From: Terriglobia bacterium
GTDB lineage: Bacteria; Acidobacteriota; Terriglobia; Bryobacterales; Bryobacteraceae
Assembly: GCA_963765085.1 (NCBI GenBank)
Contig: CAVXVL010000037.1
Coordinates: 29,852 to 93,851, forward strand
Reading direction: 5' to 3'
DNA length: 64,000 nt
Shown: one piece after another, positions 11,808-35,662 of the stretch
Layout: every line of letters begins with the position of its first letter
Position numbering within the stretch: the first letter of the stretch is position 1
Notes under the pieces: model-generated
Seen by the model: the letters and a program-made list of their open reading frames with translations, nothing else
Database searches by the model: none
Told to the model about the DNA's origin: nothing
Position numbers and translations under genes: made by a program

Positions 11808-11946
11808 CTCATCTAAAGTACTGCAAAATGGCTCTAAGAACACAGGGGGTGGGGCCTGTGGCGTAGCCCTTCAAACCTTGCATTGAAAACACTTAGGTGT
11901 CAATGGTCTGGGAATTGCGCCGGATGGAACAGAAAGCGGAGATCTT

Positions 11947-12729: not shown

Positions 12730-12750
12730 GCCTCAGTATGCGCCGGGCGA

Positions 12751-12767
12751 TATCAAAAAGGCATAAA
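12751..12767 (-). promoter_or_regulatory. KdpE-operator-like direct repeat (TTTATG-CCTTT-TTGATA)
   Basis: Minus-strand reading tttatgcctttttgata, lying between the RR stop (12775) and the HTH gene start (12729). Confidence 0.4.
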
Positions 12768-12774
12768 CGGGGAT

Positions 12775-13506
12775 CTATTCGTCGGAGACGCCGCTCTGCT
12801 CAAAGTCCGAAGGATTGCGGAAGCGATAACCGACCCACGCTTCGGTGAGAAGGTATTGCGGGCGTGCCGGATCGTCTTCGATCTTCTTGCGCAACATGCG
12901 AACGTAGGTGCGTAGATATTCGACTTCGCCGCCGTATTCCGCGCCCCACACGGCGCGCAACAGCCTGACGTGGGTGAGCGGCGCGTTCTGATTTTTCATG
13001 AAGAACGAGAGCAGATCGATCTCTTTGGGAGACAGTCGAATTTCTTCGTCGCGTTTCCATAAGAGCCGCCGCTCGAGGTCCATCCGGAGATCGCCGGCAC
13101 GCAGGATTCTTGGATCCGCTCCGCTGGCCTGAGTCCTGCGCAGCACGGCTCCCATGCGCGCGACCAGCTCGCGAAACCGGAAAGGCTTCGTGACGTAATC
13201 GTCGGCGCCGGCGTCGAGCGCGCGGACCTTATCCTCTTCGGCGTCGCGCACGGTAACCATTACGATGCCCGTCTTCGGCGCAAAGGCGCGAATCTGGCGG
13301 CACGCCTCCACGCCGCTCATGCCGGGCATGTTGACGTCGAGCAGCACGAGATCGAAAGGGCGCTGTTGGATGAACGTAAGCGCCTCCGCACCGGTGCCTG
13401 CTTCTTCGACGGTGAAGCCGCCGGCCGCGAGCGAGGACCGGATGACCTTGCGAAGCGCGGGCTCGTCGTCCACCACCAGCACGTTAACCAGCGGCGGCGA
13501 GATCAT
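12775..13506 (-). CDS. OmpR-family response regulator, KdpE-like
   Basis: Receiver domain (VVDDEP...DLVLLDVNMPGMSG...KPF) plus a winged helix with KdpE-like LSPKEIDLLSFF...VWG...YLRTYVRMLRKKIEDDPARPQYLLTEAWVGYRF. Confidence 0.9.
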   Translation of the reverse strand: MISPPLVNVLVVDDEPALRKVIRSSLAAGGFTVEEAGTGAEALTFIQQRPFDLVLLDVNMPGMSGVEACRQIRAFAPKTGIVMVTVRDAEEDKVRALDAGADDYVTKPFRFRELVARMGAVLRRTQASGADPRILRAGDLRMDLERRLLWKRDEEIRLSPKEIDLLSFFMKNQNAPLTHVRLLRAVWGAEYGGEVEYLRTYVRMLRKKIEDDPARPQYLLTEAWVGYRFRNPSDFEQSGVSDE

Positions 13507-15022: not shown

Positions 15023-15334
15023 GAGTGTCGGAGATGACCGCTAGAGCGGAAACCCCCAGCCTCCTGCGAGCGTCCCCGGAACTGTGCTTTCGACGCCCGA
15101 TTTCCCGCGGGCGGCTCGGGATCGTGGCGAGACTGATAGATGGCGGAAGATCGCGACGAGTATGTTTCCTGCTTGCGGCAAGGCGGGGCGTTTCGCGGCG
15201 TCGGACACTTTCACCGTTCCTTTCGCAACGTCCTACAAGTCTTACCGAGAATCTGAGTAAAGAGTTGAAAATCGCACGACCCGCGCAGCATGGGCGGAAC
15301 TTCATCGTGCTGCATACGAGTGTGGGCCACGAAT

Positions 15335-15351
15335 CGTAAAAAAGGCATAAA
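15335..15351 (-). promoter_or_regulatory. KdpE-operator-like direct repeat (TTTATG-CCTTT-TTTACG), facing the HK/RR operon
   Basis: Minus-strand reading tttatgccttttttacg, 313 nt upstream of the HK start at 15022. Confidence 0.5.
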
Positions 15352-15675
15352 AGCCGGGGGAGGGTTCCGCCGACGGCGAGCGCCTTTTCTTCATGTGGTT
15401 ATGATAGCCCTCCTTCGCTCGCGTGCTATAAAATAACACGAATTGCGCAGGCCGGGGCGAGTGCAAGTCCAAACGCAGGAAGGCCGCGCCATTTTTATAG
15501 ACTTTATACGCCAAATGCCGCGTGACAGGTCCGCGGAGCGCCTTCCGCAGGGCCGCTGCAAATGCACTCGCTTTAGCAGCACAAAACGAACACCCGCTAT
15601 GCGGGATATCGGCCCGAAAAGGGGAAAACGTTTATAAGCCCGATCAAAATTTCCTTGGACGGATTTCGCTCTCTC

Positions 15676-15692
15676 TTTATGACTTTTTTACG
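15676..15692 (+). promoter_or_regulatory. KdpE-operator-like direct repeat (TTTATG-ACTTT-TTTACG), facing the porin gene
   Basis: Plus-strand tttatgacttttttacg, 170 nt upstream of the proposed GTG start at 15862. An isolated TTTATA half-site lies at 15631-15636. Confidence 0.5.
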
Positions 15693-15861
15693 GCCTAAGA
15701 CCCACACTGACCATATACCCATGAGTCAGTGTTTTGCTCGCTTAGCAACATCTACTGACACCTGCTGGCCAACGTCAAAGCCAAACCCACGTAGGATGCG
15801 GCTGAGTCATCCACGACGAATAGTTTCACGCCGGCGCCTGAAGAAGAATAGGAAAGAAATA

Positions 15862-17520
15862 GTGCTGCTCCTCAAGAGGCGCAAGAGTTCGCAGGCGCTC
15901 GTCTTCGTCGCACTGGTGGGAACTTGCTATGTGCGCAGTGCTTCCGCGCAGGAGGCGCGTACCGTTCCCGATGCGGACCGATCAGCCGCCATGGATAATT
16001 CCGATTCCAACTTCGCGTCCGCGGCGGATACCATAGAAGTGGCGAATGCTGCAGATTCCAAAGCCGATGCGGACCCCCAATCGGTCGTCACCCCCGCGCT
16101 CCCCATTCCTGCTGCCGCGGCAGTACCCGCGGCGAATGCGGTTCCGGCCCAAGTACAGCGCGGATTTTGGAGCCGTTTCATCAAGGCATACGCGGATGAC
16201 TGGCATCCTCCGGCCGCAAGCGAAGAGTCGAAGTATCGCGGATATCCTCCCGTCGAGAGCAGCCCCCCGTATCCGTTCAGCGTGTGGCCGATCGGCGGCA
16301 CGGTGTGGATCGGCTATAACAACGCGACCGCGTATCCTCTGACCACGGCACTCCAAAACGGCCCGCACGGCGACTGGTGGAAGAAGGCCAACATTCAAAT
16401 TTACGGATGGGCCAACGCGGGAATGAATTTCAGCAGCAGCACCGAGCAGGTGGGCGGCAAGTACGCGAACTCACCCGCGGCCTACGATCAGATCCCCAAT
16501 TCCATTCAACTCGATCAGCTCGTTACGTATATCGAGCGCACTCCCGATACCGTCCAGACGGATCATTTCGATTGGGGCTTCCGCTTTACGAGTCTGTATG
16601 GCGGGAACTATCGTTTCACGACATCGAAGGGTATCTTTAGCCAGCAGCTTTTGACCATCCAGCCGGATGGGACCCTCGGCAAGCAGTACGGCTGGGATCC
16701 GGTCATGGCATACATCGATCTGTATTTTCCGCATGTCGCCTCAGGCATGATTCTGCGCGTGGGGCGTTACGTTTCTCTGCCAGACATCGAAGCGCAGTTA
16801 GCCCCCAATAACTACACCTACACGCACTCGCTCACCTACACGTATGACTGCTATACACAGACAGGCGTGAACGCGACTATCAAGTTGAGCGATCACTGGA
16901 CCTGGCAGGGCGGCATCTCTCCTGGGTGCGATGCGGCTCCGTGGAAAGCGGATGCTCGCGTCACGGGAAACACCTGTTTGCAGTTTATGTGGCGACAGGG
17001 CCAGGACGATATTTACGGCTGCGCCAACTCGATCAACAACAGCAAGTACGCCTACAACAATCTTGCAGCCTATTACTTGACCTGGTATCACAAGATCAAC
17101 GCCCAGTGGCACGTTGATTTCGAGTCCTGGTATCAGTACATGAAGGATACGCCCAATATATTCAATCCAATTGGGCAGACGCTCGTCGAGACCAATTCGA
17201 ACGGCGCGTGGTGCAACCAAGTGTCTCAGGTGACCTGCTACGCTCCCGAATGGGCCTTCTTGAATTACACGAACAGGCAGTTGGGGCCGCACGATTCGAT
17301 CAGTTTGCGCGACGAATATTTCGACGACATCAAGGGTCAGCGGACCGGCTATAAGGGCCATTACGTGGAAGGTGGGGTATCCTGGAATCACTGGATTGGC
17401 ACCACAATCGTTCTGCGCCCGGAAGTGCGGTGGGAGCACAACTTCGAAAATCCGGCCTACGACGGCGGAAATCGTCACAGTCAATTCATGTTCGCTGGTG
17501 ACGTGATCTGGTTCTATTGA
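15862..17520 (+). CDS. outer-membrane beta-barrel porin-like protein
   Basis: In-frame GTG at 15862 preceded by AGGAAAG gives the signal peptide VLLLKRRKSSQALVFVALVGTCYVRSASAQE. Alternating amphipathic strands and a C-terminal ...GDVIWFY aromatic terminus. The ORF-track start at 15655 would add ~70 non-signal residues and would cover the operator-like site. Confidence 0.65.
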   Translation: MLLLKRRKSSQALVFVALVGTCYVRSASAQEARTVPDADRSAAMDNSDSNFASAADTIEVANAADSKADADPQSVVTPALPIPAAAAVPAANAVPAQVQRGFWSRFIKAYADDWHPPAASEESKYRGYPPVESSPPYPFSVWPIGGTVWIGYNNATAYPLTTALQNGPHGDWWKKANIQIYGWANAGMNFSSSTEQVGGKYANSPAAYDQIPNSIQLDQLVTYIERTPDTVQTDHFDWGFRFTSLYGGNYRFTTSKGIFSQQLLTIQPDGTLGKQYGWDPVMAYIDLYFPHVASGMILRVGRYVSLPDIEAQLAPNNYTYTHSLTYTYDCYTQTGVNATIKLSDHWTWQGGISPGCDAAPWKADARVTGNTCLQFMWRQGQDDIYGCANSINNSKYAYNNLAAYYLTWYHKINAQWHVDFESWYQYMKDTPNIFNPIGQTLVETNSNGAWCNQVSQVTCYAPEWAFLNYTNRQLGPHDSISLRDEYFDDIKGQRTGYKGHYVEGGVSWNHWIGTTIVLRPEVRWEHNFENPAYDGGNRHSQFMFAGDVIWFY

Positions 17521-19633: not shown

Positions 19634-20823
19634 GTCGTCTTTTTATTCTTAAAGCGGTTGCTGGCGCGGGCCTGGTCCTCTTCCTGGCCGGTTGCGAAGG
19701 AAACGTCAAGGCCAAGGAGGGGGTGCCAGGACGGGACCGGTCCCGTGCCGGTCACGGTCGAGGCCGACCTGGACGCAAACAATTTCAAAGTGGATAAGCC
19801 GGAACAGTTTCCGCTGGCCACCGCCGGCGAGCATATCGCGGCGCCGGAGCTGAACGTCACGGGCGTGGTAAGTCCGGACGTTTCACGACAGGTTCCGGTG
19901 CCGTCGCTCGCCACCGGGCGCATCGTCGAAATCAACGCGCGCCTCGGCGATGAAGTGAAGAAGGGTCAGATCCTGTTTAAAGTTCGAAGCACCGACGTGG
20001 CGGGCGCGTACTCCGACTATCGCAAGGCCGTGAAGAACCTGGATCTCGCGATGGATAACGAGCGCCTGACGAAGATCCAGCTGGACCGTGCCAAGCTTCT
20101 GTACGACGGTGGTGCGATCCCCAAGAGCTCGCTCGATATCGCCGAAAACGCGGAAATGGGCACGAAAACTGCGTCGAAAACGCCAGGATCGATATCGAGA
20201 CCGCTAAAGAGCATCTGCAGGTGCTCGGCTCGGATCCGGAGCATCCTTCGGGAATCGTCGACGTCATGGCGCCCGTTTCTGGAACGATTACCGACCAACA
20301 GATCACGAATCAATCCGGCGTGCAGGCGCTGACGCCGCCGAACCCTTTCACGATTTCCGACATGTCGCACGTGTGGATCATCTGCGATGTGTGGGAGAAC
20401 AACATGTCGCAAGTGCACGTCGGCGAATATGCGGACGTGCATCTGGCGGCATATCCGGACAGAGTCCTGAAGGCGCGGATCAGCAATATTCTGCCGATCG
20501 TCGATCCCGACGATTCGCACCGCGAAAGTCCGCCTGGAGGTGGAGAATCCGGGACTGATGCGGTTGGGGATGTTCGTCACCGCGACATTCCACGGCGAAA
20601 CGATGGAAAAGCACGCGACGGTTCCAGCGACAGCCATTCTCCATCTGCACGATCGCGAATGGGTTTACACGCCCACCGAGACGACCGGCACGTTTCCGGC
20701 GCATGGAAGTGGTCGCCGGGAGCATGCTGCCCGGCAAACATGCAGGAAGTCGTGAGCGGACTGAAGCCGGGAACGCCGGTGGTCGCCAACGCACTGGTCT
20801 TCCAGAACACGGTTGAGCAGTAG
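19630..20823 (+). pseudogene. RND efflux periplasmic adaptor (CzcB/HlyD family); at least 5 frameshifts as assembled
   Basis: ATG 19630 encodes the lipoprotein leader MSRLFILKAVAGAGLVLFLAGCEG. Family sequence then continues through ORFs 19658.., 20221.., 20540.. and a third frame (RRMEVVAGSMLPGK). Frame changes are at about 19710-19745, 20150-20165, 20508-20518, 20693-20700 and 20738-20745. Confidence 0.8.
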
Positions 20824-20835
20824 GAACCGCATCAG

Positions 20836-23800
20836 ATGATTCGCAAGCTTGTCGATTTCGCGCTGGAGAACCGCTTCCTGGTCTTTGCGGCGGCGATTCT
20901 GCTCTTCATCTGGGGCGGCGATCGCGTTCCACAATCTCCCCGTGGAAGCTTATCCCGACGTCGCCAATAACTACGTCGAGGTCATCACGCAGTGGCCGGG
21001 AATCTCCGCCGAACAAATCGAGCAGCAGGTCACCATTCCGCTCGAAATCGTGATGAACGGGATTCCGGGCGTCGTGAACCTGCGCTCGTTCTCGATTTTC
21101 GGGCTCTCCGATTTGAAGCTGGTCTTCGATGACGACACCGACAACGCCTGGAACCGTGAGCGGGTTCTCGAACGTTTGTCGCAGGTCACGCTGCCCGCCG
21201 AACGTGGTCCCGCAGATGGGCACCGGACTGGAGTCCGGTCGGCCAGATCTATTTCTTCACGCTGCACAGCACCAATCCGGCGTACGATCCGATGGAGTTG
21301 AAGTCGCTCGAAGACTGGGTGGTCGAGAAGAATTTCAAATCGGTTCCGAATATCGTCGACGTGGCGAGCTTCGGCGGCCCCACGCGCGAATATCAGGTTC
21401 GCGTGGATCCCAACAAACTGATCTCCTACGGCCTGAGCATCGGTCAAGTGGAGCAGCAACTCACCAACAACAACGCCAACGCCGGCGGCAGCTTCATTGA
21501 AGCGGGCCTGCAGCAGATCAACATTCGCGAAGTGGGATTGGTGAAGACCGTTCACGACATCGAAAACACGGTGCTGATGACCAAAAACGGGACGCCCCTT
21601 CACGTGAAGGATATCGCGGTGGTCCAGCAAGGCCCCAAAATCCGTCTGGGCCAGTTCGCTCGCGCGATCCGCCATGAAGACGGAAAGATCGTGGATAACG
21701 ACGACGTGGTTTCCGGCATCGTGCTGCTGCGCAAAGGCGCCGAGGCGGACGCGGCGCTCCGAGGGCATTCACGCGAAAGTGGACGAACTCAACGACCATA
21801 TTCTGCCGGCCGGCGTGAAGATCGTACCCTTCATCGACCGCAGCGACCTGGTGCACTTCACCACTGAAACCGTGCTGCATAACCTCACCGAAGGAATCAT
21901 TCTCGTCGTGGTAGTCCTGTTTGCGCTGCTCGGGAATGTGCGCGGCGCGATCATCGTCGCGCTGACCATTCCCTTCGCGCTGCTGTTCGCCGCGACCTGT
22001 CTCAGCTTGAAAGGGATTCCGGCGAATCTGCTGTCGCTGGGCGCGCTCGATTTCGGAATGGTGGTCGACGGAGCGGTCGTGATGGTGGAGAATATCGTCC
22101 GCCACCTGGGGCGCACGGGCCATAGCGACCGAACACCGAAGCAGAAAATCTTCGATGCCGCGCACGAGGTGCAGAGGCCGGTGTTTTTCGCGATCGGCAT
22201 CATCATCACGGCTTACCTGCCGATCTTCACGCTGCAACGCGTGGAAGGCCGCTTGTTCAAGCCGATGGCCTGGACGGTGGCTTTCGCGCTGCTCGGCGCG
22301 ATTATTTTCTCGATGCTGATCGCGCCCGCGCTCGCCAGCGTGCTGTATCCCAAGGGAACGCAGGAATGGCACAACCCCGTGATGGCGTGGCTGATCAAGG
22401 CTTATCGCAACGCATTACGGAAAGCGATCCAATATCGCTGGCTTACCGTCGGCTTGGGCGTCGCGAGCCTTTTCGTCTCGATCTTTCATCAAGACGCAGA
22501 TCGGCTCCGAATTTCTGCCTCACCTGGACGAAGGCTCCTTGTGGGTCCGCGGCACGCTCGCGCCGAGCACCGGATATACGGAAGGCTTCCGGGTGGCGAA
22601 CCAGGCTCGCATCATATTGTGCTCGTTCCCGGAGGTGAAACAGTGCACCAGCCAGGTCGGGCGTCCCGACGATGGAACCGACACGACCGGATTCTTCAAT
22701 ACGGAATATTTCGTCGATCTGAAACCGAAAGAGGAATGGCGGCCCGGCTTCCATCAGAACAAAGAGGAAGTTATCGCCGCCATGAGCAAGGAGCTGGGGA
22801 GCATTCCAGGCACTTTGTGGAACTTCTCCCAGCCGATCGCGGACAACATGGAGGAAGCGGTCAGCGGCGTCAAAGGCCAGCTGGCCACCAAAGTTTACGG
22901 CGACGATTTGAGAACGCTGGAGCGGACAGCCGATCAGATCGTCGCGTGATGCGTCAGGTGAAGGGAATCGAGGATCTCGGCGTGTTTCGCGTGGTCGGCC
23001 AGCCGAACGACAACTTCATCGTCGACCGGCAAGCCGCCGCGCGTTATCAAATCAATATCGCCGACGTTCAGGACGCGATTCAAACCGCGGCGGGTGGCAA
23101 CGCACTCACGCAGGTTTTGCAGGACGAACAGCGCTATGACCTCGTCATGCGCTATCTCCCGCAGTTCCGCGACACTAAGGAAGCACTGGAAAATATCCGG
23201 CTTCTTGCTCCCACGGGAGAGCGCGTTTCGCTCGCGCAATTGTGCAAGATCGAAGAGCGCGACGGAGCTTCCGAAATTTACCGCGAAGGCAATCAACGCT
23301 ATATCGCGATCAAGTACAGCGTGCGCGGCCGCGATCTCGGCGGCGCGGTGGAGGACGCGATCAGTACCGTGGGCAAGAAAGTGCAATTGCCTCGCGGTTA
23401 TCACTTGCTGTGGGAGGGCGAGTACGAAAGCGAAAAGCGCGCGGAAGCCCGTCTGCTGATCGTCGTGCCGCTGACGATCCTGCTGATCTTCATCATTCTG
23501 TACATCATGTTCCGCTCATTCAAATGGGCGATGCTGATCCTGGTCAACATTGCGATCGCGCCCTTGGGAGGGTTGCTCGCGCTATATCTTACGCACACCA
23601 ACTTCAGCGTGTCCTCGGGCGTCGGGTTCCTGGCGTTGTTTGGAGTCTCCGTCCAAACCGGCGTCATCATGCTGGAGTACATCAATCAGCTGCGCGTGCA
23701 AGGACACGCCATCGCGGATGCCGCGGTGGAAGGAGCCGTATTGAGGCTTCGTCCCATCATGATGACGATGCTGGTCGCGACGCTCGGCCTGCTGCCGGCC

Positions 23801-23978
23801 GCCACTGTCGCATGGGATTGGATCGGATTCGCAGCGGCCTTTCGCCATCGTGATCGTCGGCGGACTGATCTGCGCGCTGTTCATCAGCATCTTCGTGCTC
23901 CCCACGCTGTATGTGTGGATTGCCGGAGAAGACGACATTCTGCCGGAACGGGAAGCGGAGTTCGACGAACACGGCTGA
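20836..23978 (+). pseudogene. CzcA/CusA-family heavy-metal RND efflux pump; about 7 frameshifts as assembled
   Basis: MIRKLVDFALENRFLVFAAAILLF... from ATG 20836. Conserved RND sequence can be followed across ORFs 20849.., 21129.., 21292.., 21674.., 22539.., 21674-frame again and a final frame ending ...GIGSDSQRPFAIVIVGGLICALFISIFVLPTLYVW...DEHG, with TGA at 23976-23978. Frame changes are near 20915, 21195, 21225, 21760, 22490, 22945 and 23806. Confidence 0.85.
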
Positions 23979-25963: not shown

Positions 25964-26018
25964 AGCAATGGCTGGCGACAGGAGACGGGGCTGTCTTTAC
26001 AGACGTTAACTGGGAATC

Positions 26019-26035
26019 CATAAAAAAGTCATAAA
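26019..26035 (-). promoter_or_regulatory. KdpE-operator-like direct repeat (TTTATG-ACTTT-TTTATG), facing the pseudo-kinase gene
   Basis: Minus-strand reading tttatgacttttttatg, 56 nt upstream of the start at 25963. Confidence 0.5.
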
Positions 26036-26224
26036 AACGCGTTCCCGTGGCAATGTTCAAAGAATCGTGCCGACACCGAGTGGACCGCCGACGAAGCAGA
26101 TCGATACCGTCAAACGCGTGCTCCTTCGCGTGTTCGAGCGCGCGACCGCCGAAAGACGGCCTCTCGCGCGGGACACGGTTGCTTCATGAGAAACACGATT
26201 ACCCCATGAAAAACTCACGGCTTT

Positions 26225-26241
26225 TCTATGAGTTCTTCATG
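26225..26241 (+). promoter_or_regulatory. degenerate KdpE-operator-like direct repeat (TCTATG-AGTTC-TTCATG)
   Basis: Plus-strand tctatgagttcttcatg, about 420 nt upstream of the porin start at 26660. Confidence 0.35.
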
Positions 26242-26387
26242 CCTTTCGCACTATGCTCAGACCGTGCGAGTGAGTCAGAAGAAAATGTAAAACTTCTTAT
26301 CTTGATGACGGCACGGGACGTCGTGGATGGGGGATGCGGTCTGTTATGAGACCCATTAAAATTTCCTTTCATTCTTCTTTCACGCTT

Positions 26388-26404
26388 TTTATGACTTTTT
26401 CATG
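26388..26404 (+). promoter_or_regulatory. KdpE-operator-like direct repeat (TTTATG-ACTTT-TTCATG), facing porin 2
   Basis: Plus-strand tttatgactttttcatg, 256 nt upstream of ATG 26660. It is preceded by AAAATTTCCTT at about the same distance as at 15646-15656 upstream of porin 1. Confidence 0.5.
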
Positions 26405-26659
26405 AGCCCGGTTGCATACTGGGTCCACAACGCAGCTCAAGAAAAAAAGCCTCGATCTTCAGGGAGGCTTCGAAGGCTTGGGCGGCCCAGGGTAATTTAA
26501 GCGACTCCCGTCCGAAATTTACTGACACCATTTGCCGCCACACCCCGGTCCGGTACGGCAGCGCCCCTCGAGACACGCTTTCGGGGGCAGTGTCAGAGAA
26601 CCATAGCCAAAGTTCTATCGCTCGCTCTCTGTTAGGCAGAGGGCAAGGAAGGATATTTC

Positions 26660-28333
26660 ATGCACCACAAAAAGCATAGGAAAGGCCGAGGTGTCCTCGT
26701 TGCGAGCTTCTGCACGGCGGGGCTCCTCGCTTTCGCTGCGCAGAACGTCGTTGCGCAACAAGTCGCCGCGCAGCCGCCAGCGGTCGAACAAACGGTTTCC
26801 GACCAGAGTTCGGCGGACGCCAAACTGGACGCACTCAAGAAGCGCGCCGCGGAACGAGGAGCCGCCGCGGAGAAAGACACAAAGGATCCGGTATTAGTGG
26901 CGGATGCCTCACCGGCGCCAGCCCCCGATGCCGATGCGCAAGCCGCCCCGCCCGCGGCTCCGCCGGCGGCCGCGCCCGCGGCTCCCGCCGTGGATAACGA
27001 CACGCCGTTCGCGTTCGCCGACTTTACGTGGATGCTTTCCAATCCGCGTAATCACGACGAAGTTCTCGATGGCAAGTATTATTCCGGTGAGTTCCGCATC
27101 GATACCAACTACATGTACGATCTGAATCACCCGATCGATCACACGCTCGGTGGCACCACCGAAGGTGAGCGCACCGGTGAATTTCTGATTCAGGCCGTCA
27201 ACGTCGGCGGCGACTTCCATGCCGGCAATATGCAGGGACGCATCCTAACGCAGTTCGGCGCTGTCTCCACCGCTGTCCCGCGCAACGATGCCAGCTATAG
27301 CTTGGGCCAGTGGCAGTTAAATGATGCCTACCGGTATATGACGGAAATGTATGCCGGCTATCACATCAACTACAAACACGGTTTAAATATTCAAGTCGGC
27401 GACTTTCTGTCGTTTATTGGTCTGTTCAGCTATTACAGCTTTGATAACTGGACCTATCAGCCGTCTTATGTGTCGTCGAACACGCCGTGGTTCTTCACCG
27501 GAATGCGCGCGCAGTTCTTCCCCACGAATAAGCTGAAGATCGAGCCGTGGCTCATCAACGGCTGGCAGACCTATGCCAAATACAACGGCCGTGAAGGCGT
27601 CGGCGGTCAGATACTTTACCGGCCCACCGGAAACTGGGACTTTGTATGGAACAGCTATACCCTCGGCCGCGATACTTTGGGCAATGATCAGCGCTCGCGC
27701 TACCACGCCGACTGGAGCCAGGAGTGGAAGTTTTACGAAAAGGCCGACGGAAAAGGTTTCCACCGCATGGCGACGACCATGACCGAAGATTTCGGTTGTG
27801 AAACCGGCGGTGGTGTCGCCTGCCGCGGCAACTGGAGCAAAGGCATCCCCGCGCAGAACTTCATCGGCATCATGGGGTATATGAAGATGTGGCTCGATAC
27901 CAAGGAACGCTTCGCCTTCAACTTTGGCGGCGGCGTGATGAATAACCCGGGCCGTTATCTCGTGCTGCTTCCCCCGATCAACGGGGCGACGGCCACCACC
28001 GGAACGCCATACTTCCCGGAAGCCCCGGGTCTGCCCTTCAAGGGCTACGATTTCCAGGTCAACTTCAGTTACATGCCGAGCCAGTGGGTTACCTGGATGT
28101 TCGAGTTCACGCAACGCGGTTCGACCGTCCCGTACTTTACCGGTTCCGGCGGTGTGACGCCGCAGGCGGTTCCCGGTACGTACGTAAACACCGGCAACCC
28201 TGGTTCGTATACCTGTAACGACGGAGTCGCGTCCGGCAGCGCCACCGGTTGCGGAGGCGACGGCGGCCTGTGGAGTCCGGATCTGCGCAAGCAGGAACGC
28301 CGGTTCACGATCGCCCTTCTGGTGAAACTGTAA
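26660..28333 (+). CDS. outer-membrane beta-barrel porin-like protein with Ala/Pro-rich N-terminal linker
   Basis: Signal peptide ...LLAFAAQNVVAQQ, low-complexity PAPAPDADAQAAPPAAPPAAAPAAPA, then ~430 aa of alternating beta-strand pattern rich in Y/W/G/N. RBS AAGGAAGGA lies upstream. Confidence 0.65.
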   Translation: MHHKKHRKGRGVLVASFCTAGLLAFAAQNVVAQQVAAQPPAVEQTVSDQSSADAKLDALKKRAAERGAAAEKDTKDPVLVADASPAPAPDADAQAAPPAAPPAAAPAAPAVDNDTPFAFADFTWMLSNPRNHDEVLDGKYYSGEFRIDTNYMYDLNHPIDHTLGGTTEGERTGEFLIQAVNVGGDFHAGNMQGRILTQFGAVSTAVPRNDASYSLGQWQLNDAYRYMTEMYAGYHINYKHGLNIQVGDFLSFIGLFSYYSFDNWTYQPSYVSSNTPWFFTGMRAQFFPTNKLKIEPWLINGWQTYAKYNGREGVGGQILYRPTGNWDFVWNSYTLGRDTLGNDQRSRYHADWSQEWKFYEKADGKGFHRMATTMTEDFGCETGGGVACRGNWSKGIPAQNFIGIMGYMKMWLDTKERFAFNFGGGVMNNPGRYLVLLPPINGATATTGTPYFPEAPGLPFKGYDFQVNFSYMPSQWVTWMFEFTQRGSTVPYFTGSGGVTPQAVPGTYVNTGNPGSYTCNDGVASGSATGCGGDGGLWSPDLRKQERRFTIALLVKL

Positions 28334-28347
28334 GTGTGAATGCAACC

Positions 28348-28379
28348 GTGCCGGAGCACTCGCAAGGGTGCTCCGGCAC
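28348..28379 (+). terminator. rho-independent-type hairpin after porin 2
   Basis: Perfect 12-bp stem gtgccggagcac / gtgctccggcac with loop tcgcaagg, 15 nt after the stop. The downstream T-tract is weak (acaaaacgttt). Confidence 0.55.
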
Positions 28380-28420: not shown

Positions 28421-29137
28421 ATGTGCCACGTCTCGAAAGCATTTACGGCGACGTTACTTTCCTTCTCCGCAGTCGCCTTGATCGCCGCCGCCGATCCGTC
28501 CTGGCGCGCGAAGTCCATGGATCAGTGGACGGCGCAGGACGCCAAGCAGGTGCTCACGAATTCCCCGTGGGTGAAAACGACCACGGTGAAAGCATACATC
28601 CCCAAGAACGAGGATCAACTCCGGCAAGCCGGGCGCATGGGCGGAGGCCAAGGCATCGGACTCCAGGGTTTGGATCCGAAGGGTTTTCTTTTGGGCGCGA
28701 GCACAAAGCGAAATCGTCCCGAAGCGGGTCCTGTCAATGCGCTGCAGGTTCGTTGGGAGAGCTCGGAGGCGGTTCGGGCCGCGGAGTTGAAGCTCCCGAA
28801 CGAAAGCGCACCCGACGCCTGGAAGGGCGAGTATTATGCCATCGCGGTCTACGGTGTGCCGATCCCGCCGGAGGATTTGAGCAACGAGTCGAATAACTGG
28901 AATTTGAAGAAGCTCGCGACACTGAAACGGGACGGTAAGAAAGAAGTGGCGCCGATCAAGGTCGACGTCTCGGTGCAGACGGAAAAGCTCAGCATCGTCG
29001 TTTACTTTTTTCCGCGGAGCGCGGCCATTACAACGGACGATGATCACGTGGAGTTCGACGCCCGCATCGGACGGCTGATGTTGGATCAGAAATTCGACGT
29101 CAAGGAAATGCTGCTTGGCGACAAACTTCAGCTGTGA
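28421..29137 (+). CDS. secreted protein of unknown function, 'W-x2-D/E-A-x2-V-x-NSPW' family, paralogue 1
   Basis: RBS AAGGAGG; signal peptide. Conserved blocks shared with 29245..29967 and 48238..48990: WTAQDAKQVLTNSPW, RWES, YYAIAVYG, VVYFFPRS, RIGRL. Confidence 0.6.
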   Translation: MCHVSKAFTATLLSFSAVALIAAADPSWRAKSMDQWTAQDAKQVLTNSPWVKTTTVKAYIPKNEDQLRQAGRMGGGQGIGLQGLDPKGFLLGASTKRNRPEAGPVNALQVRWESSEAVRAAELKLPNESAPDAWKGEYYAIAVYGVPIPPEDLSNESNNWNLKKLATLKRDGKKEVAPIKVDVSVQTEKLSIVVYFFPRSAAITTDDDHVEFDARIGRLMLDQKFDVKEMLLGDKLQL

Positions 29138-29244
29138 GTGATTTTTGCCGTGGCGTTTGGACGCCGCTGCGGTAAAGTCGTAATTACACACATGGCGAGG
29201 CGTCTTCGGACCTTCGCCATGGACTGTTTAAAGAGGTATACGCT

Positions 29245-29967
29245 ATGTCTCACGTGAAATTGCCGTTCGTGTTGTCGCTTAGCGCCGTCCTTCTGCTCGC
29301 TGCCGATCCCGTTTGGAAGACGAAACCCGTTCCGGCGTGGACGGAACAGGACGCCGTGCAGGTTATCACGAATTCTCCGTGGTCGAAACTGACGACCGCG
29401 GGAATCGCGCGCCTCCAATCCGAAGACGAGCGCCGCGAGGGCGGAAATATGGGACAAGCCACCGGCGTCGGGTATGACGGAATCAATAACGGAAAAAAGC
29501 CCATGCCCAATGCTTCGAGCGTCTTCGGCGGGCCGAACGCCGACCCGAAGCGCACCGGCCAGGATACGTTTTACAAGCTGCGATTAGTGTGGGAGAGCGC
29601 GCTCCCGGTTCGCCTTGCCGAATTGAAGGCGCGCGACGTTGAACCGCCCACGTCGACCACCGAATGCTACATGCTGGCCGTCTACGGTGTTCCCGGAAAA
29701 TACTTTGTGGGCGATCCGCAAAAATTAGGGAAACCCCTGATCGAGGACGCGGTCCTCAAACGAGAGGGCCAAAAAGACGTAAAGCCCTTTAACGTGGAAG
29801 TTTTTCAGCGCGACAGCGGTCCCGTAGTCGTCTACATGTTCCCGTTGTCGGCCGAAATCTCAAAAAAAGACGCGTCTGTCACGTTCGAGGCAAAACTGGG
29901 ACGGCTCATCATCTCTCAGGTATTTAATTTGGCGGAGATGGAGTTTCAGGGGAAGCTCGAAATCTAG
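29245..29967 (+). CDS. secreted protein of unknown function, NSPW family, paralogue 2
   Basis: Tandem to paralogue 1. Blocks WTEQDAVQVITNSPW, VWESALPVRLAE, YMLAVYGVP, VVYMFPLS, KLGRL. Confidence 0.6.
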   Translation: MSHVKLPFVLSLSAVLLLAADPVWKTKPVPAWTEQDAVQVITNSPWSKLTTAGIARLQSEDERREGGNMGQATGVGYDGINNGKKPMPNASSVFGGPNADPKRTGQDTFYKLRLVWESALPVRLAELKARDVEPPTSTTECYMLAVYGVPGKYFVGDPQKLGKPLIEDAVLKREGQKDVKPFNVEVFQRDSGPVVVYMFPLSAEISKKDASVTFEAKLGRLIISQVFNLAEMEFQGKLEI

Positions 29968-30018
29968 AGAAAGGCAAGCGGCCGGATCTGGCGCCAACCC
30001 ATCAGAACCGAAATCCGC

Positions 30019-31638
30019 ATGCCTCCACAAAACGATCTGGAAGATCCAACCGACTCGCTCATTCCTGCGAGCCTGCGATCGCTTCTGGCAATCGGTTCGA
30101 ATCTTCTCGATTTCCCCGCCTCCGGCAGGCCCCGAGCTAACATAGAAGCAGGCCTAAAAATGGAGTTGGCAAAAGGGGGCGCCCCGTGGGATCGCGTCAG
30201 GCGCACATTGTATGGCATCGTGGCGGTGGTGCTTGCCACGGCTCTCTGTTTCCGGCTGCATTTAGGGGCGTCCGGAACCATCCCCGTATATCTGCTCATT
30301 GTTGTACTCAGTTCCCTGGCCGGCGATTTATTATCCGCCGCGATCATCTCCCTGCTCTCCGTGCTGTCGTTGGATTATTTCTTCACTAGCCCGCTTTTTT
30401 CCCTGCGCGTGAGTAATCCGACCGAAATCCTGGCGTTGCTCTCTTTTGCGATGACGGCTTTGGTGATTACGCGTCTGGTGACGCGCGTGCGCGCGGAAGC
30501 GGAATCGGCCAGCCTTCAGAAGGACCGGCTGGACCGGTTGTATCAGCTCTCCCAGCAGCTTCTGGCATTGGAACCGGGCGATGCCGCAAGCCCCACCTTT
30601 CTCGCTCCATTCCGCCGCCTTTTCAACGTAAACGCAATTAGTATTTTCGATGCGGGGACGGGAGACCAGCACCTTGTGGGAGAATCGCGTTTTGGACTGA
30701 CGGAGAAAACGCGTCAGGCCTATCTACAGGCCCGCGATTTTGAAGATCGAACCGCGGGCATCGCCGTTCGGTGCGTCCGCGTGGGAGATCACTTGATCGA
30801 AGCGATCGGATTCGAAGGGCTTCGTCATCCGGATGAAACCGCCGGCCCGCTTACGGCCGTCACGGCGACGCTGCTCGCGCGCATTCGGGCGTTTCGTAAG
30901 GAGAGTTCCGCATCGGCCGCCGCACAAACGGAAATGTATCGCTCCGCCGTACTGGATGCCCTGGCCCACGAATTTAAGACGCCCTTGGCTACCATTCTGG
31001 CGGCCATAGGGGGCCTGCGCGAATCGGGTCCGTTGGCGCAAGAGCAAGTGGATATGGCCGATACCGTGGAGAACGAAGCGGCGCGCCTGGGAAGTCTGAC
31101 TTCGCGGCTGCTCAGAACAGCGCGGCTCGACAGGGAAGATATTAAGCCACGCATGGAATGGATCGATCTGGCGGCTCTCGCGGCAAAAGTCGCGGTATCC
31201 TACGCCGCCCGGTCGTCGGACCGCGAAATAAAAGTGGCGTCCCACGAGCCGGTGCTGGTGCCCGCGGATCCGGAGTTGCTGCAGTTGACGGTGGGACAAC
31301 TGATCGAAAACGCCTGCAAGTATTCGCAACCCGGTTCGATCGTTCGCGTCGGTCTGGAGGTTATGGGTGATTTCGTTTCCTTGAAGGTGACCAACACCGG
31401 GAGTTCGATATCCCCGCACGAACGGCGGCGCATTTTCGATCGCTTCTATCGCGGTGCGGACGCCCGGCGCTCGACGTCGGGCTCGGGTTTGGGATTGTAC
31501 GTGGCACGCAAAATCGCGATCGCTCACGGCGGCGCTCTGGATCTGGAGACCGGAACACAAGTTGAGGATAACGTGACATTTTCGTTGAAGTTGCCCTACG
31601 CCGCGCAAGGAATGGAATATGCCGCCGCAACAGAATAG
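30019..31638 (+). CDS. DUF4118-GAF-HisKA-HATPase sensor histidine kinase (KdpD C-terminal-type)
   Basis: Paralogue of 13484..15022. H-box LAHEFKTPLATI, N-box LIENACKYS, G-boxes DRFYRG and GSGLGLYVA. Overlaps the RR gene by 20 nt. Confidence 0.9.
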   Translation: MPPQNDLEDPTDSLIPASLRSLLAIGSNLLDFPASGRPRANIEAGLKMELAKGGAPWDRVRRTLYGIVAVVLATALCFRLHLGASGTIPVYLLIVVLSSLAGDLLSAAIISLLSVLSLDYFFTSPLFSLRVSNPTEILALLSFAMTALVITRLVTRVRAEAESASLQKDRLDRLYQLSQQLLALEPGDAASPTFLAPFRRLFNVNAISIFDAGTGDQHLVGESRFGLTEKTRQAYLQARDFEDRTAGIAVRCVRVGDHLIEAIGFEGLRHPDETAGPLTAVTATLLARIRAFRKESSASAAAQTEMYRSAVLDALAHEFKTPLATILAAIGGLRESGPLAQEQVDMADTVENEAARLGSLTSRLLRTARLDREDIKPRMEWIDLAALAAKVAVSYAARSSDREIKVASHEPVLVPADPELLQLTVGQLIENACKYSQPGSIVRVGLEVMGDFVSLKVTNTGSSISPHERRRIFDRFYRGADARRSTSGSGLGLYVARKIAIAHGGALDLETGTQVEDNVTFSLKLPYAAQGMEYAAATE

Positions 31639-32365
31639 CGTGTTGATTGTGGATGACGAGTCGTCGCTGCGAACGGCCCTGCGCAGCTCGCTCACGGCGA
31701 GCGGATTTGCCGTGGGCGAGGCGCGCAATGGAGAGGAAGCTCTGGGGACGGTTCAGCATACGCCGTTCGATCTGGTCCTCCTCGATATCAATATGCCGGG
31801 GATCAGCGGTCTGGATGCGTGCCGCCGATTGCGAGAGATGGCTCCCACGCTAGCCATCGTGATGGTCACCGTCCGCGAGCTGGAAGATGACAAGGTCCGT
31901 GCGTTGGAAGCGGGCGCCGACGACTACATCACGAAGCCTTTTCGCTACCGGGAACTGACTGCTCGCTTGCGCGCGGTTCTGCGCAGAACCCGCACTCAAC
32001 CGGCGGCGGAACCCTCCCCTATCTTGGAAGCTGGCGAACTGAAGCTCGACGTCGAGAAGCGCCTGCTGTGGAAGGGAGAAGAACAGATCCGTCTCTCTCC
32101 CACCGAATTCGAGCTGCTCACCTTCCTCATGCGCAACGAGAACGCACCGCTCACGCACGCGAAGCTGTTACGCACGGTGTGGGGGCCGGAAAAAGGCGAG
32201 GAGCTCGAATACTTGAGATCCTACGTCCGGATGCTTCGCAAAAAAATCGAGGATGATCCAGGCAAGCCGCAATACATCTTGACCGAGCCCTGCGTCGGAT
32301 ATCGCTTCCGCAATCCTTCCGATCCGGACGCACCGGCGGTACCGATCGAGGGATCGGACTATTAG
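31619..32365 (+). CDS. OmpR-family response regulator, KdpE-like
   Basis: Receiver domain plus winged helix LSPTEFELLTFL...VWGPEKGEELEYLRSYVRMLRKKIEDDPGKPQYILTEPCVGYRF, close to the E. coli KdpE pattern. Confidence 0.9.
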   Translation: MPPQQNSVLIVDDESSLRTALRSSLTASGFAVGEARNGEEALGTVQHTPFDLVLLDINMPGISGLDACRRLREMAPTLAIVMVTVRELEDDKVRALEAGADDYITKPFRYRELTARLRAVLRRTRTQPAAEPSPILEAGELKLDVEKRLLWKGEEQIRLSPTEFELLTFLMRNENAPLTHAKLLRTVWGPEKGEELEYLRSYVRMLRKKIEDDPGKPQYILTEPCVGYRFRNPSDPDAPAVPIEGSDY

Positions 32366-32780: not shown

Positions 32781-33275
32781 ATGAGCAACATCGCACTGAA
32801 GGTCAACGGCAAAATGCACGCGTTGGATGTCGACGCTTCGACGCCGCTGTTGTATATACTACGCAACGACCTTGGCCTGCAAGGTCCGCGCTTTGGCTGC
32901 GGACTGGGCCAATGCGGAGCTTGTACCGTCATCGTGAACGGCGCGGCCATCCGGTCGTGCGTCACGCCGGTGTCGGCCGTGAAGACTGAGGTCACGACGC
33001 TCGAAGGAATCTCGAAGGACGGCAAGCTGCACCCGTTGCAACAGGCCTGGATCGAGGAGCAGGTCCCGCAGTGCGGCTTCTGCCAGAACGGCCAAATCAT
33101 GACGGCCAAGGCGATGCTCGATAAGAATCCGCATCCCACCGACGCGCAGATTCGCGAAGGCATGAATCGGACGCTGTGCCGGTGCATGACTTATTACCGG
33201 ATTCAGGCCGCCATAAAGCGAGGGGCAAAAATCATCGCGGAAGCACACGACGCAGAGAAGGCGGTGGTGGCATGA
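32781..33275 (+). CDS. (2Fe-2S)-binding small subunit of an aldehyde oxidase/xanthine dehydrogenase-family enzyme (IorA-like)
   Basis: ATG 32781 after AAGGAG. Two cluster motifs: GCGLGQCGACTV and CGFCQNGQIM...CRC. Confidence 0.9.
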   Translation: MSNIALKVNGKMHALDVDASTPLLYILRNDLGLQGPRFGCGLGQCGACTVIVNGAAIRSCVTPVSAVKTEVTTLEGISKDGKLHPLQQAWIEEQVPQCGFCQNGQIMTAKAMLDKNPHPTDAQIREGMNRTLCRCMTYYRIQAAIKRGAKIIAEAHDAEKAVVA

Positions 33276-35662
33276 CAACTTTTACCAGCGTTCCCAGACA
33301 GGTCGAAGAAGAACTCGAGAAGCACCTCGTCACGCCGTCGCGCAGGGACTTCCTCAAGAGCGCCGGACTGCTCGTCGTCAGCTTCAGCGCCGCAGGCACA
33401 GGTGCGCTGGTCACGCAAGCGGACGCGCAAACTCCCGCGGGCTCTCCAGGAGCCGGTCCCTATCACGACCCCGACTTTCATCAGCTCGATTCGTGGATTG
33501 TGATCCGTGAGGACAACACCGCGACCTTCTACGTCGGCAAGACCGACTGCGGTCAAGGCACAGGCACGTCGTTCCGTCAGCTGATGTCGGATGAGTTGGA
33601 CATCGCCTACGATAAAACCGCGTGCGTAATGGGCAGCACGGACATCACGGTGGACCAAGGCGGGTCGGGTGGTTCGACAGCGATGGAAAGAGATGCCTGG
33701 CCGATGCGCCGGGCCGCTGCCGAGGCGCGCCGTGTGCTTTTGGAAATGGGATCTACCCGGCTCGGCGTTCCGGTCGATCAGCTGACCGTAAACGCCGGTG
33801 TCATCGCCGTCAAAGCTGATCCATTAAAGAGCGTTACCTACGGACAACTGATCGGTGGAAAGAGATTCAACGTCACGCTGACAGGGAAAGACGTCAACGC
33901 AGCCACCGGCATCGCCAAAGTCAAACCGGTGCAGGACTACCAGATTGTCGGCCAGTCTCCGCAGCGTTACGATATTCCCGCGAAGGTCGATGGATCGCTG
34001 AAATGGGCCGTGGACGTGAAGCTCCCCGGGATGGTTCATGCGCGCAACGTGAAGCCGCCCGTCGCCGGCGCGAAGCTCGTCAGTATCGACGAATCGTCCG
34101 TGAGCGGGTTGCCCGGCTTCGTAAAGGTCGTCAGTAAGGGCAACTACGTCGCGGTCGTTTGCGAGCGTGAAGAACAAGCGATCAAGGCCGCCAAACAACT
34201 GAAAGCGAGCTGGGAGAAGCCGGCCTCGGCGCCGTTCCCTGCCTCCGAAGACCTGTTCACGTATATGCGGAGCGTCACGCCCACGTCCAGCGGCACGCCG
34301 ATCGTGGTGGGCAATCCGGAATCGGCTTTTGCCGGCGCGGCGCAAGTGATCGAAGCCGACTACGATATCCCGTTTCAGGGCCACACGGCGTTCAGCCCGG
34401 CGCATGCCATGGCCGATCCATCGAACGATCTCATGACGATCTATTCGAACGACATGAAGTCTTACGGAATGCGCCGCGGCGTCGCGACCTTTTTGGGCAT
34501 GCCGCAGGATCGGGTCCGTGTCGTCTGGATGGAAGGCCCGCAAGGTTTCGGACGCACTGCCGCTGAGGATGCCGGATGCGAGGCGGCTTATATCGCCAAA
34601 GAGATCGGCCGGCCGGTTCGCATGCAATGGATGCGCGACGAAGAGACCGCCTGGGACACGAAGGCCCCGGCGTTTACGGTGAGAATGCGTGGAGCATTAG
34701 ACGCCGCAGGCAACTTGGTGGCTTACGACTATAACGGTCGCGCGGCGGACTACAATCACCTTGGCTATAACGAGCCAGACACAGTGCTGATCGCGCAACT
34801 CATGGGAATGCGCCGCACTACGCCGGCAGCCGGTAGCGCGTCGACGCCTTCGGACGTGTACGCGATCCCCCATCGCCAGATGACCAGTCATGTGGTGAGC
34901 TTGCCGTCGATCTGGGAGACGCCCGTTCGCACCGGAAACCTCCGCGATCCGAACGGACCCCAGGCAACCTTCGCGTCCGAATCTTTCATCGATGAACTCG
35001 CGGCGGCGGCGAAGACCGATCCGCTCGAATTCCGCATGAAGATGCTGATGGCCGGGAAAAATGACGACAACGCATTTCGGCGCGCACGGTCGATCGCCGT
35101 CCTCAAAACGGTGGCTGAAACCTACGACTGGGATTATCGCTCTTCGCCAAAGCCGCGCGGAGATGGAGATATTCTAACCGGCCGTGGCGTCGGCTACGCC
35201 TTCCGCAATCAGACGGTGGTGGCCGAGATCGCCGAGGTGGAGGTGAATCGCCGCACCGGTCATGTCTGGGTGAAACGGCTGGTCTGCGCCCACGACTGCG
35301 GGTTGATCGTCAATCCGCAATCCCTGCGTCACACCATCGAATGCGCCATGCTCCACTCCGTGAGCCGCACGCTCCACGAAGAAGTGCAGTTCAACACCGA
35401 AAAGGTCACGAGCGTGGATTGGAACTCGCATCCCACTCTCACGCACGCCGACACACCCGAAAGGATTGACGTCGTGCTGGTGAACGGCGATCCCCATCCG
35501 ACGCGGTCCGACCTCGCTCCCTATGGAGCCGGCGAAACGGCTTGTAAACCGCTGCTCGCGACAATTGCGAATGCAATCTACGATGCCACGGGCGTCCGGC
35601 TCCGCCGCGTGCCCTTCCGCCCGGCGCGCGTGCTCGCCGCTTTGCAAACAGCGCGCGTTTGA
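33272..35662 (+). CDS. molybdopterin-binding large subunit (IorB-like), Tat-exported
   Basis: ATGA overlap with the small-subunit stop. Twin-arginine leader SRRDFLKSAGLLVVSFSAAG. About 800 aa aldehyde oxidase/xanthine dehydrogenase Mo-binding architecture. Confidence 0.9.
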   Translation: MTTFTSVPRQVEEELEKHLVTPSRRDFLKSAGLLVVSFSAAGTGALVTQADAQTPAGSPGAGPYHDPDFHQLDSWIVIREDNTATFYVGKTDCGQGTGTSFRQLMSDELDIAYDKTACVMGSTDITVDQGGSGGSTAMERDAWPMRRAAAEARRVLLEMGSTRLGVPVDQLTVNAGVIAVKADPLKSVTYGQLIGGKRFNVTLTGKDVNAATGIAKVKPVQDYQIVGQSPQRYDIPAKVDGSLKWAVDVKLPGMVHARNVKPPVAGAKLVSIDESSVSGLPGFVKVVSKGNYVAVVCEREEQAIKAAKQLKASWEKPASAPFPASEDLFTYMRSVTPTSSGTPIVVGNPESAFAGAAQVIEADYDIPFQGHTAFSPAHAMADPSNDLMTIYSNDMKSYGMRRGVATFLGMPQDRVRVVWMEGPQGFGRTAAEDAGCEAAYIAKEIGRPVRMQWMRDEETAWDTKAPAFTVRMRGALDAAGNLVAYDYNGRAADYNHLGYNEPDTVLIAQLMGMRRTTPAAGSASTPSDVYAIPHRQMTSHVVSLPSIWETPVRTGNLRDPNGPQATFASESFIDELAAAAKTDPLEFRMKMLMAGKNDDNAFRRARSIAVLKTVAETYDWDYRSSPKPRGDGDILTGRGVGYAFRNQTVVAEIAEVEVNRRTGHVWVKRLVCAHDCGLIVNPQSLRHTIECAMLHSVSRTLHEEVQFNTEKVTSVDWNSHPTLTHADTPERIDVVLVNGDPHPTRSDLAPYGAGETACKPLLATIANAIYDATGVRLRRVPFRPARVLAALQTARV

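Follow-up and report, generated by a model that had tools for sequence, protein, structure and literature searches.

A gap of 700 bp separates the gene of a kinase-like protein, the pseudo-kinase, from the gene of porin 2 in the stretch of acidobacterial DNA that is analysed here (64,000 nucleotides, referred to as the window). The two genes are oriented away from each other, which raises the question of how transcription is started in both directions from the same gap and by which regulator it is controlled. The initial annotation had proposed a divergent promoter region with three KdpE-like boxes in this gap, one of them facing the pseudo-kinase and two of them facing porin 2. The letters of all three boxes are exactly as claimed (Table 1), and the distance from the end of the minus-strand box to the GTG start codon of the pseudo-kinase at position 25963 is indeed 56 nt.

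Matches to Pfam and NCBIfam models reveal two paralogous two-component modules in the 64-kb window. The regulators RR1 and RR2, which consist of Response_reg and Trans_reg_C domains, are 65% identical to each other, and the kinases HK1 and HK2, which are made up of a DUF4118 membrane domain, a GAF-like region, HisKA and HATPase, are 50% identical. The names of the homologues of porin 2, of which there are more than 7,900, indicate Bryobacteraceae/Terriglobia, and an exact-protein look-up found no record of its exact sequence. The two secreted paralogues, HK2 and RR2, which follow on the plus strand (28421-32365), may be carried on a single transcript with porin 2. A motif scoring scan found no box 5' of HK2.

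Table 1. Positions, within the window, of the genes, promoter elements and leader elements discussed in the text.
Feature	Position	Strand	Remarks
RR1	12775-13506	minus	OmpR-family regulator, module 1
HK1	13484-15022	minus	DUF4118 + HisKA + HATPase, module 1
Module 1 boxes	12751-12767, 15335-15351, 15676-15692	minus, minus, plus	TTTATGACTTTTTYATG matches with at most 3 mismatches
BBP2 porin 1	about 15862-17520		divergent from HK1, module 1
Pseudo-histidine-kinase, 379 aa	24824-25963	minus	weak HisKA and HATPase Pfam matches, module 2
Predicted pseudo-kinase start	near 25996	minus	leader about 33 nt with conserved GACAG...CTGTC hairpin
Predicted -10 TAACGT, pseudo-kinase promoter	26003-26008	minus	10 nt past box
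Strong box TTTATGACTTTTTTATG	26019-26035	minus	faces pseudo-kinase; TTTATG direct repeat, 11-bp period
Weak box TCTATGAGTTCTTCATG	26225-26241	plus	14/17 to consensus; -10-like TATGCT at 26252-26257
Distal half-site pair GTTATGAGACCCATTAA	26343-26359	plus	45 nt upstream of main box
Element AAAATTTCCTT	26358-26368	plus	recurs in porin-1 promoter at 15646-15656
Box U TTCATTCTTCTTTCACG	26368-26384	plus	14/17; starts 20 bp before main box; no -10 of its own
Main strong box TTTATGACTTTTTCATG	26388-26404	plus	faces porin 2
Predicted -10 CATACT, porin 2 promoter	26415-26420	plus	predicted start near 26427
Porin-2 5' leader, 233 nt	26427-26659	plus	conserved; predicted start to ATG
P1	26522-26528 with 26590-26596	plus	CUGACAC with GUGUCAG
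P2 hairpin	26534-26562	plus	loop CCGGUCC at 26545-26551
P3	26563-26567 with 26584-26588	plus	leader helix
P4	26624-26644	plus	directly before Shine-Dalgarno
Shine-Dalgarno AAGGAAGGA	26645-26653	plus	porin-2 leader
Porin 2, BBP2 (OmpL-like) outer-membrane beta-barrel	26660-28333	plus	Pfam PF07642, E = 9e-36
Two paralogous secreted proteins	28421-29137, 29245-29967	plus	3' of porin 2
HK2, DUF4118 kinase	30019-31638	plus	module 2
RR2, KdpE-like regulator	31619-32365	plus	module 2

The pattern TTYATG-N5-TTYATG is found in the whole 64 kb only at the two strong boxes, against an expectation of 0.02. A search of the same 64 kb for the consensus TTTATGACTTTTTYATG with up to 3 mismatches gives six matches while 0.09 are expected, a count that none of 100 shuffles reaches, and all six adjoin the two paralogous two-component systems. 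Motif scoring revealed no further strong sites in the window. All of the strong sites have the form TTTATG-N5-TTYAYG with a period of 11 bp, and this agrees with sites of the OmpR/PhoB family, in which half-sites of about 6 bp are repeated directly and in tandem every 10-11 bp. The module-1 intergenic region also contains TTTATAGACTTTATACG at 15494-15510 (plus strand), in which two TTTATA words are 9 bp apart and which has no -10-like hexamer; on both counts it is out of phase with the other boxes. A reading of ATCAAAATTTCC as an IHF site was rejected because, by eye, it does not match the TTR portion of the consensus.

Four loci (L001, L002, L003 and L005) that are syntenic with the window and encode a porin 84-90% identical to porin 2 were used for comparison; a scan of the genome collection yielded three loci only, one of them a duplicate of L001. 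Across five related loci the two strong boxes are invariant or nearly so. The minus-strand box is identical in L001, L002 and L003 and has one mismatch in L005, and the main box is conserved in all four. Both strong boxes are kept together with their -10 hexamers, and the roughly 300 bp between them have diverged or have been deleted, so that in L005 the two boxes are only about 180 bp apart. On the pseudo-kinase side the box, the -10 and the short leader are all conserved in the four loci, and on the porin side almost all positions from about 26343 to the start codon of porin 2 are conserved among the syntenic loci. The proposal of a three-box region therefore holds for the two strong boxes but not for the weak third one, which is absent from L003 and L005 and is altered or partly kept in L001 and L002. 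This comparison makes the function of the weak box doubtful and suggests that it is dispensable. An 8-codon GTG ORF located behind it was also considered and was set aside, as it is not conserved in L001.

Between the end of each box and a -10-like hexamer (CATACT, CACACT, TAACGT or TATGCT) there are exactly 10 nt. This spacing was also seen in boxes of the fetched loci which had not been selected for a -10:.A...T stands at the expected place in 48 out of 49, whereas the background is 4.2%. In the orthologues, the hexamer of the pseudo-kinase promoter reads TAAGTT or TAATTT at the same position as in the window. A generic promoter and terminator scan detected no sigma-70 promoter in either intergenic region. 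The boxes thus combine a fixed distance of about 10 bp to the -10 with the lack of a -35 consensus, as do pho-box-type (class II, -35-replacing) sites. As each box ends exactly 10 nt before the -10, it is predicted to span about -39 to -23 and to occupy the place of the -35, a placement that would amount to pho-box geometry.

The identification of the hexamer as a -10 is supported by two gene classes, encoding small HTH proteins and VWA proteins, in which the start codon is located 5-7 nt past the hexamer. This is where transcription should begin, and the mRNAs of both classes therefore look leaderless, beginning at the start codon. In the window, the -10 (CATACT, 12735-12740) of the box at 12751-12767 (minus strand) is separated by only 5 nt from the start codon, ATG, of the gene for a 159-aa protein with a weak match to HTH and sigma-70 region 4 (12250-12729, minus strand). 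The mRNA of this HTH protein is probably leaderless, and about 20 metagenome loci are organised in the same way. Among sequence runs searched for evidence on the starts, only five, all of them of soil DNA, contain parts of the stretch, at low word shares; it was found in no RNA run.

The KdpE site of E. coli, TTTATA-CTTTT-TTTACA, is located at -72 to -50 (PMC3264566) and is identical to TTTATGCCTTTTTTACG at 14 of 17 positions. Both have two AT-rich direct repeats of 6 bp starting with TT and an AT-rich 5-bp spacer, the half-sites and spacer of the window reading TTTATG-(A/C)CTTT-TTYAYG. Alignment to 4KNY shows that RR1 and RR2 keep R193, R200 and T215 of KdpE as well as the YLRxY helix, and their recognition helices are near-identical; the DNA-contact residues of KdpE are thus found together with a half-site of the TTTAYA type. 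The best NCBIfam model is KdpE for RR1 and KdpD for HK2. However, RR1 (181.9 bits) and RR2 (179.8 bits) stay below the KdpE equivalog cut-off (NF007820, 325 bits), and HK1 and HK2 reach 127-128 bits against the KdpD cut-off of 1123 bits, with matches to KdpD positions 635-884 only. The window kinases resemble KdpD in having a DUF4118 membrane domain, a GAF-like region and a kinase core, but only the C-terminal third of KdpD is matched and its N-terminal and Usp domains are lacking. In contrast to the E. coli KdpE site, the predicted location of the window box is -39 to -23. In the acidobacterial case a genome has several paralogous systems, and the targets are not kdpFABC but porins, VWA proteins, the HTH protein and the kinases themselves. 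No kdpFABC gene occurs among about 110 downstream genes and ORFs of the fetched loci, which were sampled by box plus CAYACT, and no kdp gene is present among the window ORFs scanned.

The promoters of E. coli pstS and phoA, which are controlled by PhoB, depend on this activator and carry a direct-repeat box, with the half-site CTGTCA, that replaces the -35 and ends about 10 bp before the -10; some PhoB promoters have tandem boxes. The window promoters appear analogous, as the box is in the place of the -35, about 10 bp before the -10, and tandem boxes are present at some promoters, but the half-site sequence is different and the window system has no link to phosphate genes. At ompF and ompC, OmpR acts on porin genes from tandem sites that are arrayed at intervals of about 20 bp before a weak promoter. 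By analogy, the window would show a similar arrangement of an OmpR-family regulator, a porin target, tandem sites about 20 bp apart and a weak promoter, although its target is a BBP2 porin and not a general trimeric one, and although it differs from ompF and ompC in phylum, in site sequence and in the kind of kinase. The regulator-kinase system is, on these comparisons, best described as KdpD/KdpE-like in its predicted DNA recognition, PhoB-like in its predicted placement and an orthologue of neither.

A scan of metagenomes with the DNA motif alone (box-N10-CAYACT) yielded at least 120 loci from soil and peat. Among the matches listed, the downstream gene encodes a BBP2 porin at 40, a small protein with a weak HTH/sigma-r4 match, like that at 12250-12729, at 20, an acidobacterial VWA protein (TIGR03436) at 17 and a DUF4118 kinase at 10. 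The presence of DUF4118 kinases behind the same box implies autoregulation. Among the same listed matches, the regulator helix YLR[STA]Y..LRKKIE is encoded in 54 of 120 loci (45%) and in 33 of the 53 loci of at least 4 kb, and a kinase with LAHEFKTPL in 41 of 120 and in 29 of 53, respectively. A putative cognate winged-helix regulator is thus encoded near the site in the window (RR1 and RR2) and co-occurs with it in the 54 listed loci. The family of the small HTH protein is represented in 49 fetched loci. A search of the literature for an acidobacterial KdpE regulon or for a link between kdp and porins found nothing relevant.

On this evidence, it is probable that the boxes are sites of phosphorylated KdpE-like regulators of the OmpR/PhoB family (RR1 and RR2), which act in the place of the -35 and drive both divergent transcripts. 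The original idea of a divergent promoter with KdpE-like boxes is supported by the enrichment of the motif, its conservation in orthologues, the fixed spacing to the -10 and the co-occurrence with KdpD/KdpE-like genes. In the mechanism that we infer, a signal would act through HK1 or HK2 to phosphorylate RR1 or RR2, and a dimer of the phosphorylated regulator would sit head-to-tail on the two 6-bp half-sites of TTTATG-N5-TTYAYG. Located at about -39 to -23, the box would substitute for the missing -35, with RNA polymerase being recruited as by PhoB, and the bound regulator would activate the pseudo-kinase, porin-2 and module-1 promoters. The leftward promoter would give rise to the histidine-less pseudo-kinase, a probable feedback modulator, and the rightward promoter to porin 2 and probably to HK2, RR2 and the other genes that follow. 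The long structured leader of the porin mRNA would add a second, post-transcriptional layer of control. A mechanism of this kind, an activator site of the OmpR/PhoB family, is ordinary; what makes this case worthwhile is the phylum, the breadth of the regulon and the unexpected pseudo-kinase and leader.

It could be argued that the 33-bp motif is instead the promoter of an alternative sigma factor, with ATGAC/ATGCC as the -35 and CAYACT or TAANNT as the -10, and that no regulator is involved. The first half-site holds ATGACT or ATGCCT, which matches TTGACA at 4 of 6 positions and lies 18 nt before the -10, so that contact with sigma might account for some of the conservation. The fixed spacing between the two elements and the outcome of the generic sigma-70 scan, in which the region has no standard promoter, agree with this reading as well. 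However, the conserved block takes in the spacer (CTTTTTYAYG), a part to which sigma factors are indifferent, and the direct repeat of TTYAYG with its 11-bp period is as for OmpR/PhoB-family dimers and belongs to a site with 14/17 identity to that of E. coli KdpE. Further half-site arrays are present upstream of the porin promoters, and the motif accompanies a two-component family and not a sigma gene. We therefore regard a sigma factor acting on its own as improbable.

Little likelihood is also attached to a binding of the boxes by the small co-regulated HTH protein (12250-12729) in place of the response regulators. Its gene adjoins the two-component genes and stands behind a box itself, both here (12751-12767) and at 20 metagenome loci among the matches listed, and the HTH_23 and Sigma70_r4 models of Pfam match the protein weakly. 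With 17-20 bits, however, these matches do not reach the threshold, and direct repeats in tandem with a period of 11 bp are what winged-helix regulators typically recognise. The resemblance of site and helix to those of KdpE leads to the response regulators directly and more simply.

A site at -39 to -23 overlaps the footprint of the polymerase, and the regulator might thus be a repressor which blocks the promoter over the -35 region. This seems quite unlikely to us, since promoters that depend on an activator, such as those with pho boxes, are marked by just this combination of no recognisable -35 with weak -10s (CAYACT, TAACGT), and since kinase and regulator genes are found behind the same box, as is common for positive autoregulation. 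Finally, intergenic DNA is more AT-rich than coding DNA in the window, but an origin of the boxes as chance AT-rich words in GC-rich intergenic DNA can practically be dismissed, because no shuffle reaches the observed count, the boxes are conserved exactly in orthologues while neighbouring intergenic DNA diverges, and the genes downstream are consistent among the at least 120 independent occurrences in metagenomes.

With the boxes read as activator sites of the KdpE-like regulators, the porin-2 promoter appears to carry additional sites of the same kind. The initial annotation had noticed that the flanks of the porin-facing box match the porin-1 region, and had named a comparison with shuffled controls as the test that could refute it. 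The 48 nt upstream of the box are identical at 29 positions in register between the two porin promoters, which is beyond the maximum of 25 in 20,000 shuffles (13.5 +/- 3.0), and other pairs of boxes have 10-16 identical of 48 upstream nt. The element AAAATTTCCTT is present in both porin promoters as stated, and its start precedes the box by exactly 30 nt in each of them, but the position given for it upstream of porin 2 (26356-26366) was off by two. The two porins are not close paralogues, as had been noted; they have no BLASTP similarity (E = 0.55), though both match Pfam BBP2. It is therefore the regulatory architecture that the two regions have in common.

Two sites upstream of porin 2 which had gone unmentioned, the distal half-site pair at 26343-26359 and box U at 26368-26384, are better conserved than the weak box. 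The distal pair has a counterpart in the porin-1 promoter (TTTATAAGCCCGATCAA at 15631-15647) and is conserved as CTTATGA-N5-CATYAA in 11 porin-2-type loci. Box U is probably a second site for a regulator dimer. Related loci have TTCATGCTTCTTTCATG at its position, related porin promoters have TTCATG-CTTCT-TTCATG, and in further porin lineages the upstream position is taken by TTCACG half-sites arrayed at intervals of about 11 bp. Box U and the TTCACG arrays together suggest that several regulator dimers bind in tandem, and the upstream sites suggest a cooperative or graded control of the porin promoter.

The term pseudo-kinase, used in the initial annotation, is appropriate. The protein is a soluble paralogue of the DUF4118 kinases which lacks the DUF4118 membrane domain and has degenerate N and G boxes. 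Its H-box reads GDEFKNRL as against AHEFKTPL in true kinases, the phospho-acceptor His being replaced by Asp. The position of the His is taken by D, S or N in every pseudo-kinase orthologue, whereas about 60 true kinases of the fetched loci have AHEFKTPL, and E-x-x-N is retained in the family beside the lost His. This occurrence of D, S or N in all orthologues points to a conserved histidine-less family and not to a decayed gene. The pseudo-kinase may be a dedicated phosphatase or a modulator of the regulators. The gene of the histidine-less kinase paralogue is always divergent from a porin gene and located behind a box.

Much of the conserved non-coding DNA on the porin side seems to be structured mRNA leader and not promoter. 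One position of P1 is A-U, G-U or G-C across loci, and the G-U pairs indicate an RNA on the porin-sense strand. Of 27 porin-class leaders, 19 have the core of P2, which is missing from all 43 leaders of the kinase, HTH or VWA classes. In 38 distinct hairpins, the inner helix of P2 is 97.4% paired; its closing pair is AU in 25, GC in 10 and GU in 3 and is never unpaired, and the middle pair is CG in 33 and UA in 2. The covariation score of P2 is 0.349 versus 0.194 +/- 0.028 for shuffles, none of which reaches it (0/500), and complementarity of the outer helix exceeds that of permuted flanks in all but 20 of 2,000 permutations. Covariation in P1 and P3 is modest.

The porin-1 leader (15710-15861) has the same layout, with GCUGGC ... 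AGCC-loop-GGCU ... GCCGGC. BBP2 porin leaders share a hairpin of the form RCC-CNNGUYN-GGY on a variable covarying stem inside a long-range helix, which is also seen in L007, L009, L025, L031, L078, L117, L123 and others. Folding of single sequences gives z = -1.8 for the porin-2 leader and z = +1.0 for the porin-1 leader; folding energy alone is uninformative and the case for a leader structure therefore rests on comparative evidence. A full three-helix covariance model has 12 strong matches, in porin-2-type leaders only; the porin-1-type leaders share the layout and have too little sequence in common for the model. No match at the gathering threshold of Rfam 15 was found in the window, and a search of both leaders and six related loci in E-value mode returned noise only (E above 0.1). 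A sigma-54 reading of CTGGCAC was rejected, as it needs TGGCAC-N5-TTGC with GG and GC 11 apart; the spacing in the window group is 2 nt short (TGGCACCATTTGCA), the window itself has TGACAC, and in the alignments other groups have no TTGC.

The porin leader is presented as a candidate new cis-regulatory RNA specific to porin mRNAs. Enterobacterial mRNAs for outer-membrane proteins such as ompA have long structured 5' UTRs before the gene of an abundant outer-membrane protein. The porin leader is similarly long and apparently structured and would by analogy be a plausible platform for control of mRNA stability or for small-RNA control, which is our conservative guess for its role, although there is no sequence or structural homology between the acidobacterial leader and the ompA-type 5' UTRs.

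Acidobacteria are among the most abundant bacteria in soil and, to our knowledge, almost nothing is known of their gene regulation. We tentatively suggest, as a possibility that goes well beyond the promoter itself, that Terriglobia contain an expanded, undescribed family of KdpD-like (N-terminally truncated) and KdpE-like proteins which has been rewired from a K+ pump to an envelope regulon of BBP2 porins, VWA and HTH proteins. Such a family would act through -35-replacing boxes with many leaderless transcripts and a conserved pseudo-kinase feedback, and would include a new class of structured porin leaders (three-helix core, RCC-CNNGUYN-GGY) that might sense a ligand, a small RNA or a protein. 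The regulator and its site offer a directly testable system, and the promoter rule of a box, 10 nt and.A...T predicts transcription starts, leaderless ones included, across many uncultured genomes. The regulon would tie a KdpD/KdpE-like sensor to outer-membrane permeability, and the porin mRNAs would provide a candidate new cis-acting RNA element.

Several features of the surrounding genes were also observed. A perfect 12-bp hairpin (GTGCCGGAGCAC-N8-GTGCTCCGGCAC, 28348-28379, plus strand) is located 15 nt past the stop codon of porin 2 and has no clear T-tract; it may be an attenuator of read-through, or a stabiliser, between porin 2 and the downstream genes. For the secreted paralogues, which are about 37% identical to each other, more than 1,800 homologues exist, none of which has a name or a Pfam domain, and 2-3 copies of them stand in tandem behind porin genes. 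The secreted 240-aa protein has no Pfam or NCBIfam match, and its AlphaFold model (pLDDT 71.7), a generic beta-sandwich, matches no PDB entry at E <= 0.001. An extra OmpR-family regulator gene lies between the secreted proteins and the kinase in L001 (9442-10164) and L002 (5017-5754) and is absent in the window, and in L002 the kinase-regulator pair is inverted. The distance from the HK1 promoter to the HK1 start codon (15023-15318, minus strand) is about 290 nt as against 0-130 nt in related loci, and a 96-aa ORF in this interval (15015-15305) has no homologue in any fetched locus.

The modules are flanked by the genes of a multi-haem cytochrome c (11040-11843, minus strand, CytoC_RC and Cytochrome_C7 matches) and of a molybdopterin oxidoreductase of the xanthine-dehydrogenase family (33176-35662, plus strand), both without a box. 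The gene of an RND efflux pump (20836-23975, plus strand) runs through frames 1, 2, 3, 2 and 3 when compared with its orthologue in L001 (1045 aa). This amounts to about four frameshifts, and the gene is therefore either a pseudogene or affected by indel errors of the assembly. The adaptor gene 5' of the pump (19658-21301) is also broken into several ORFs. Despite such frameshifts elsewhere in the window, the boxes are present in independent assemblies too.
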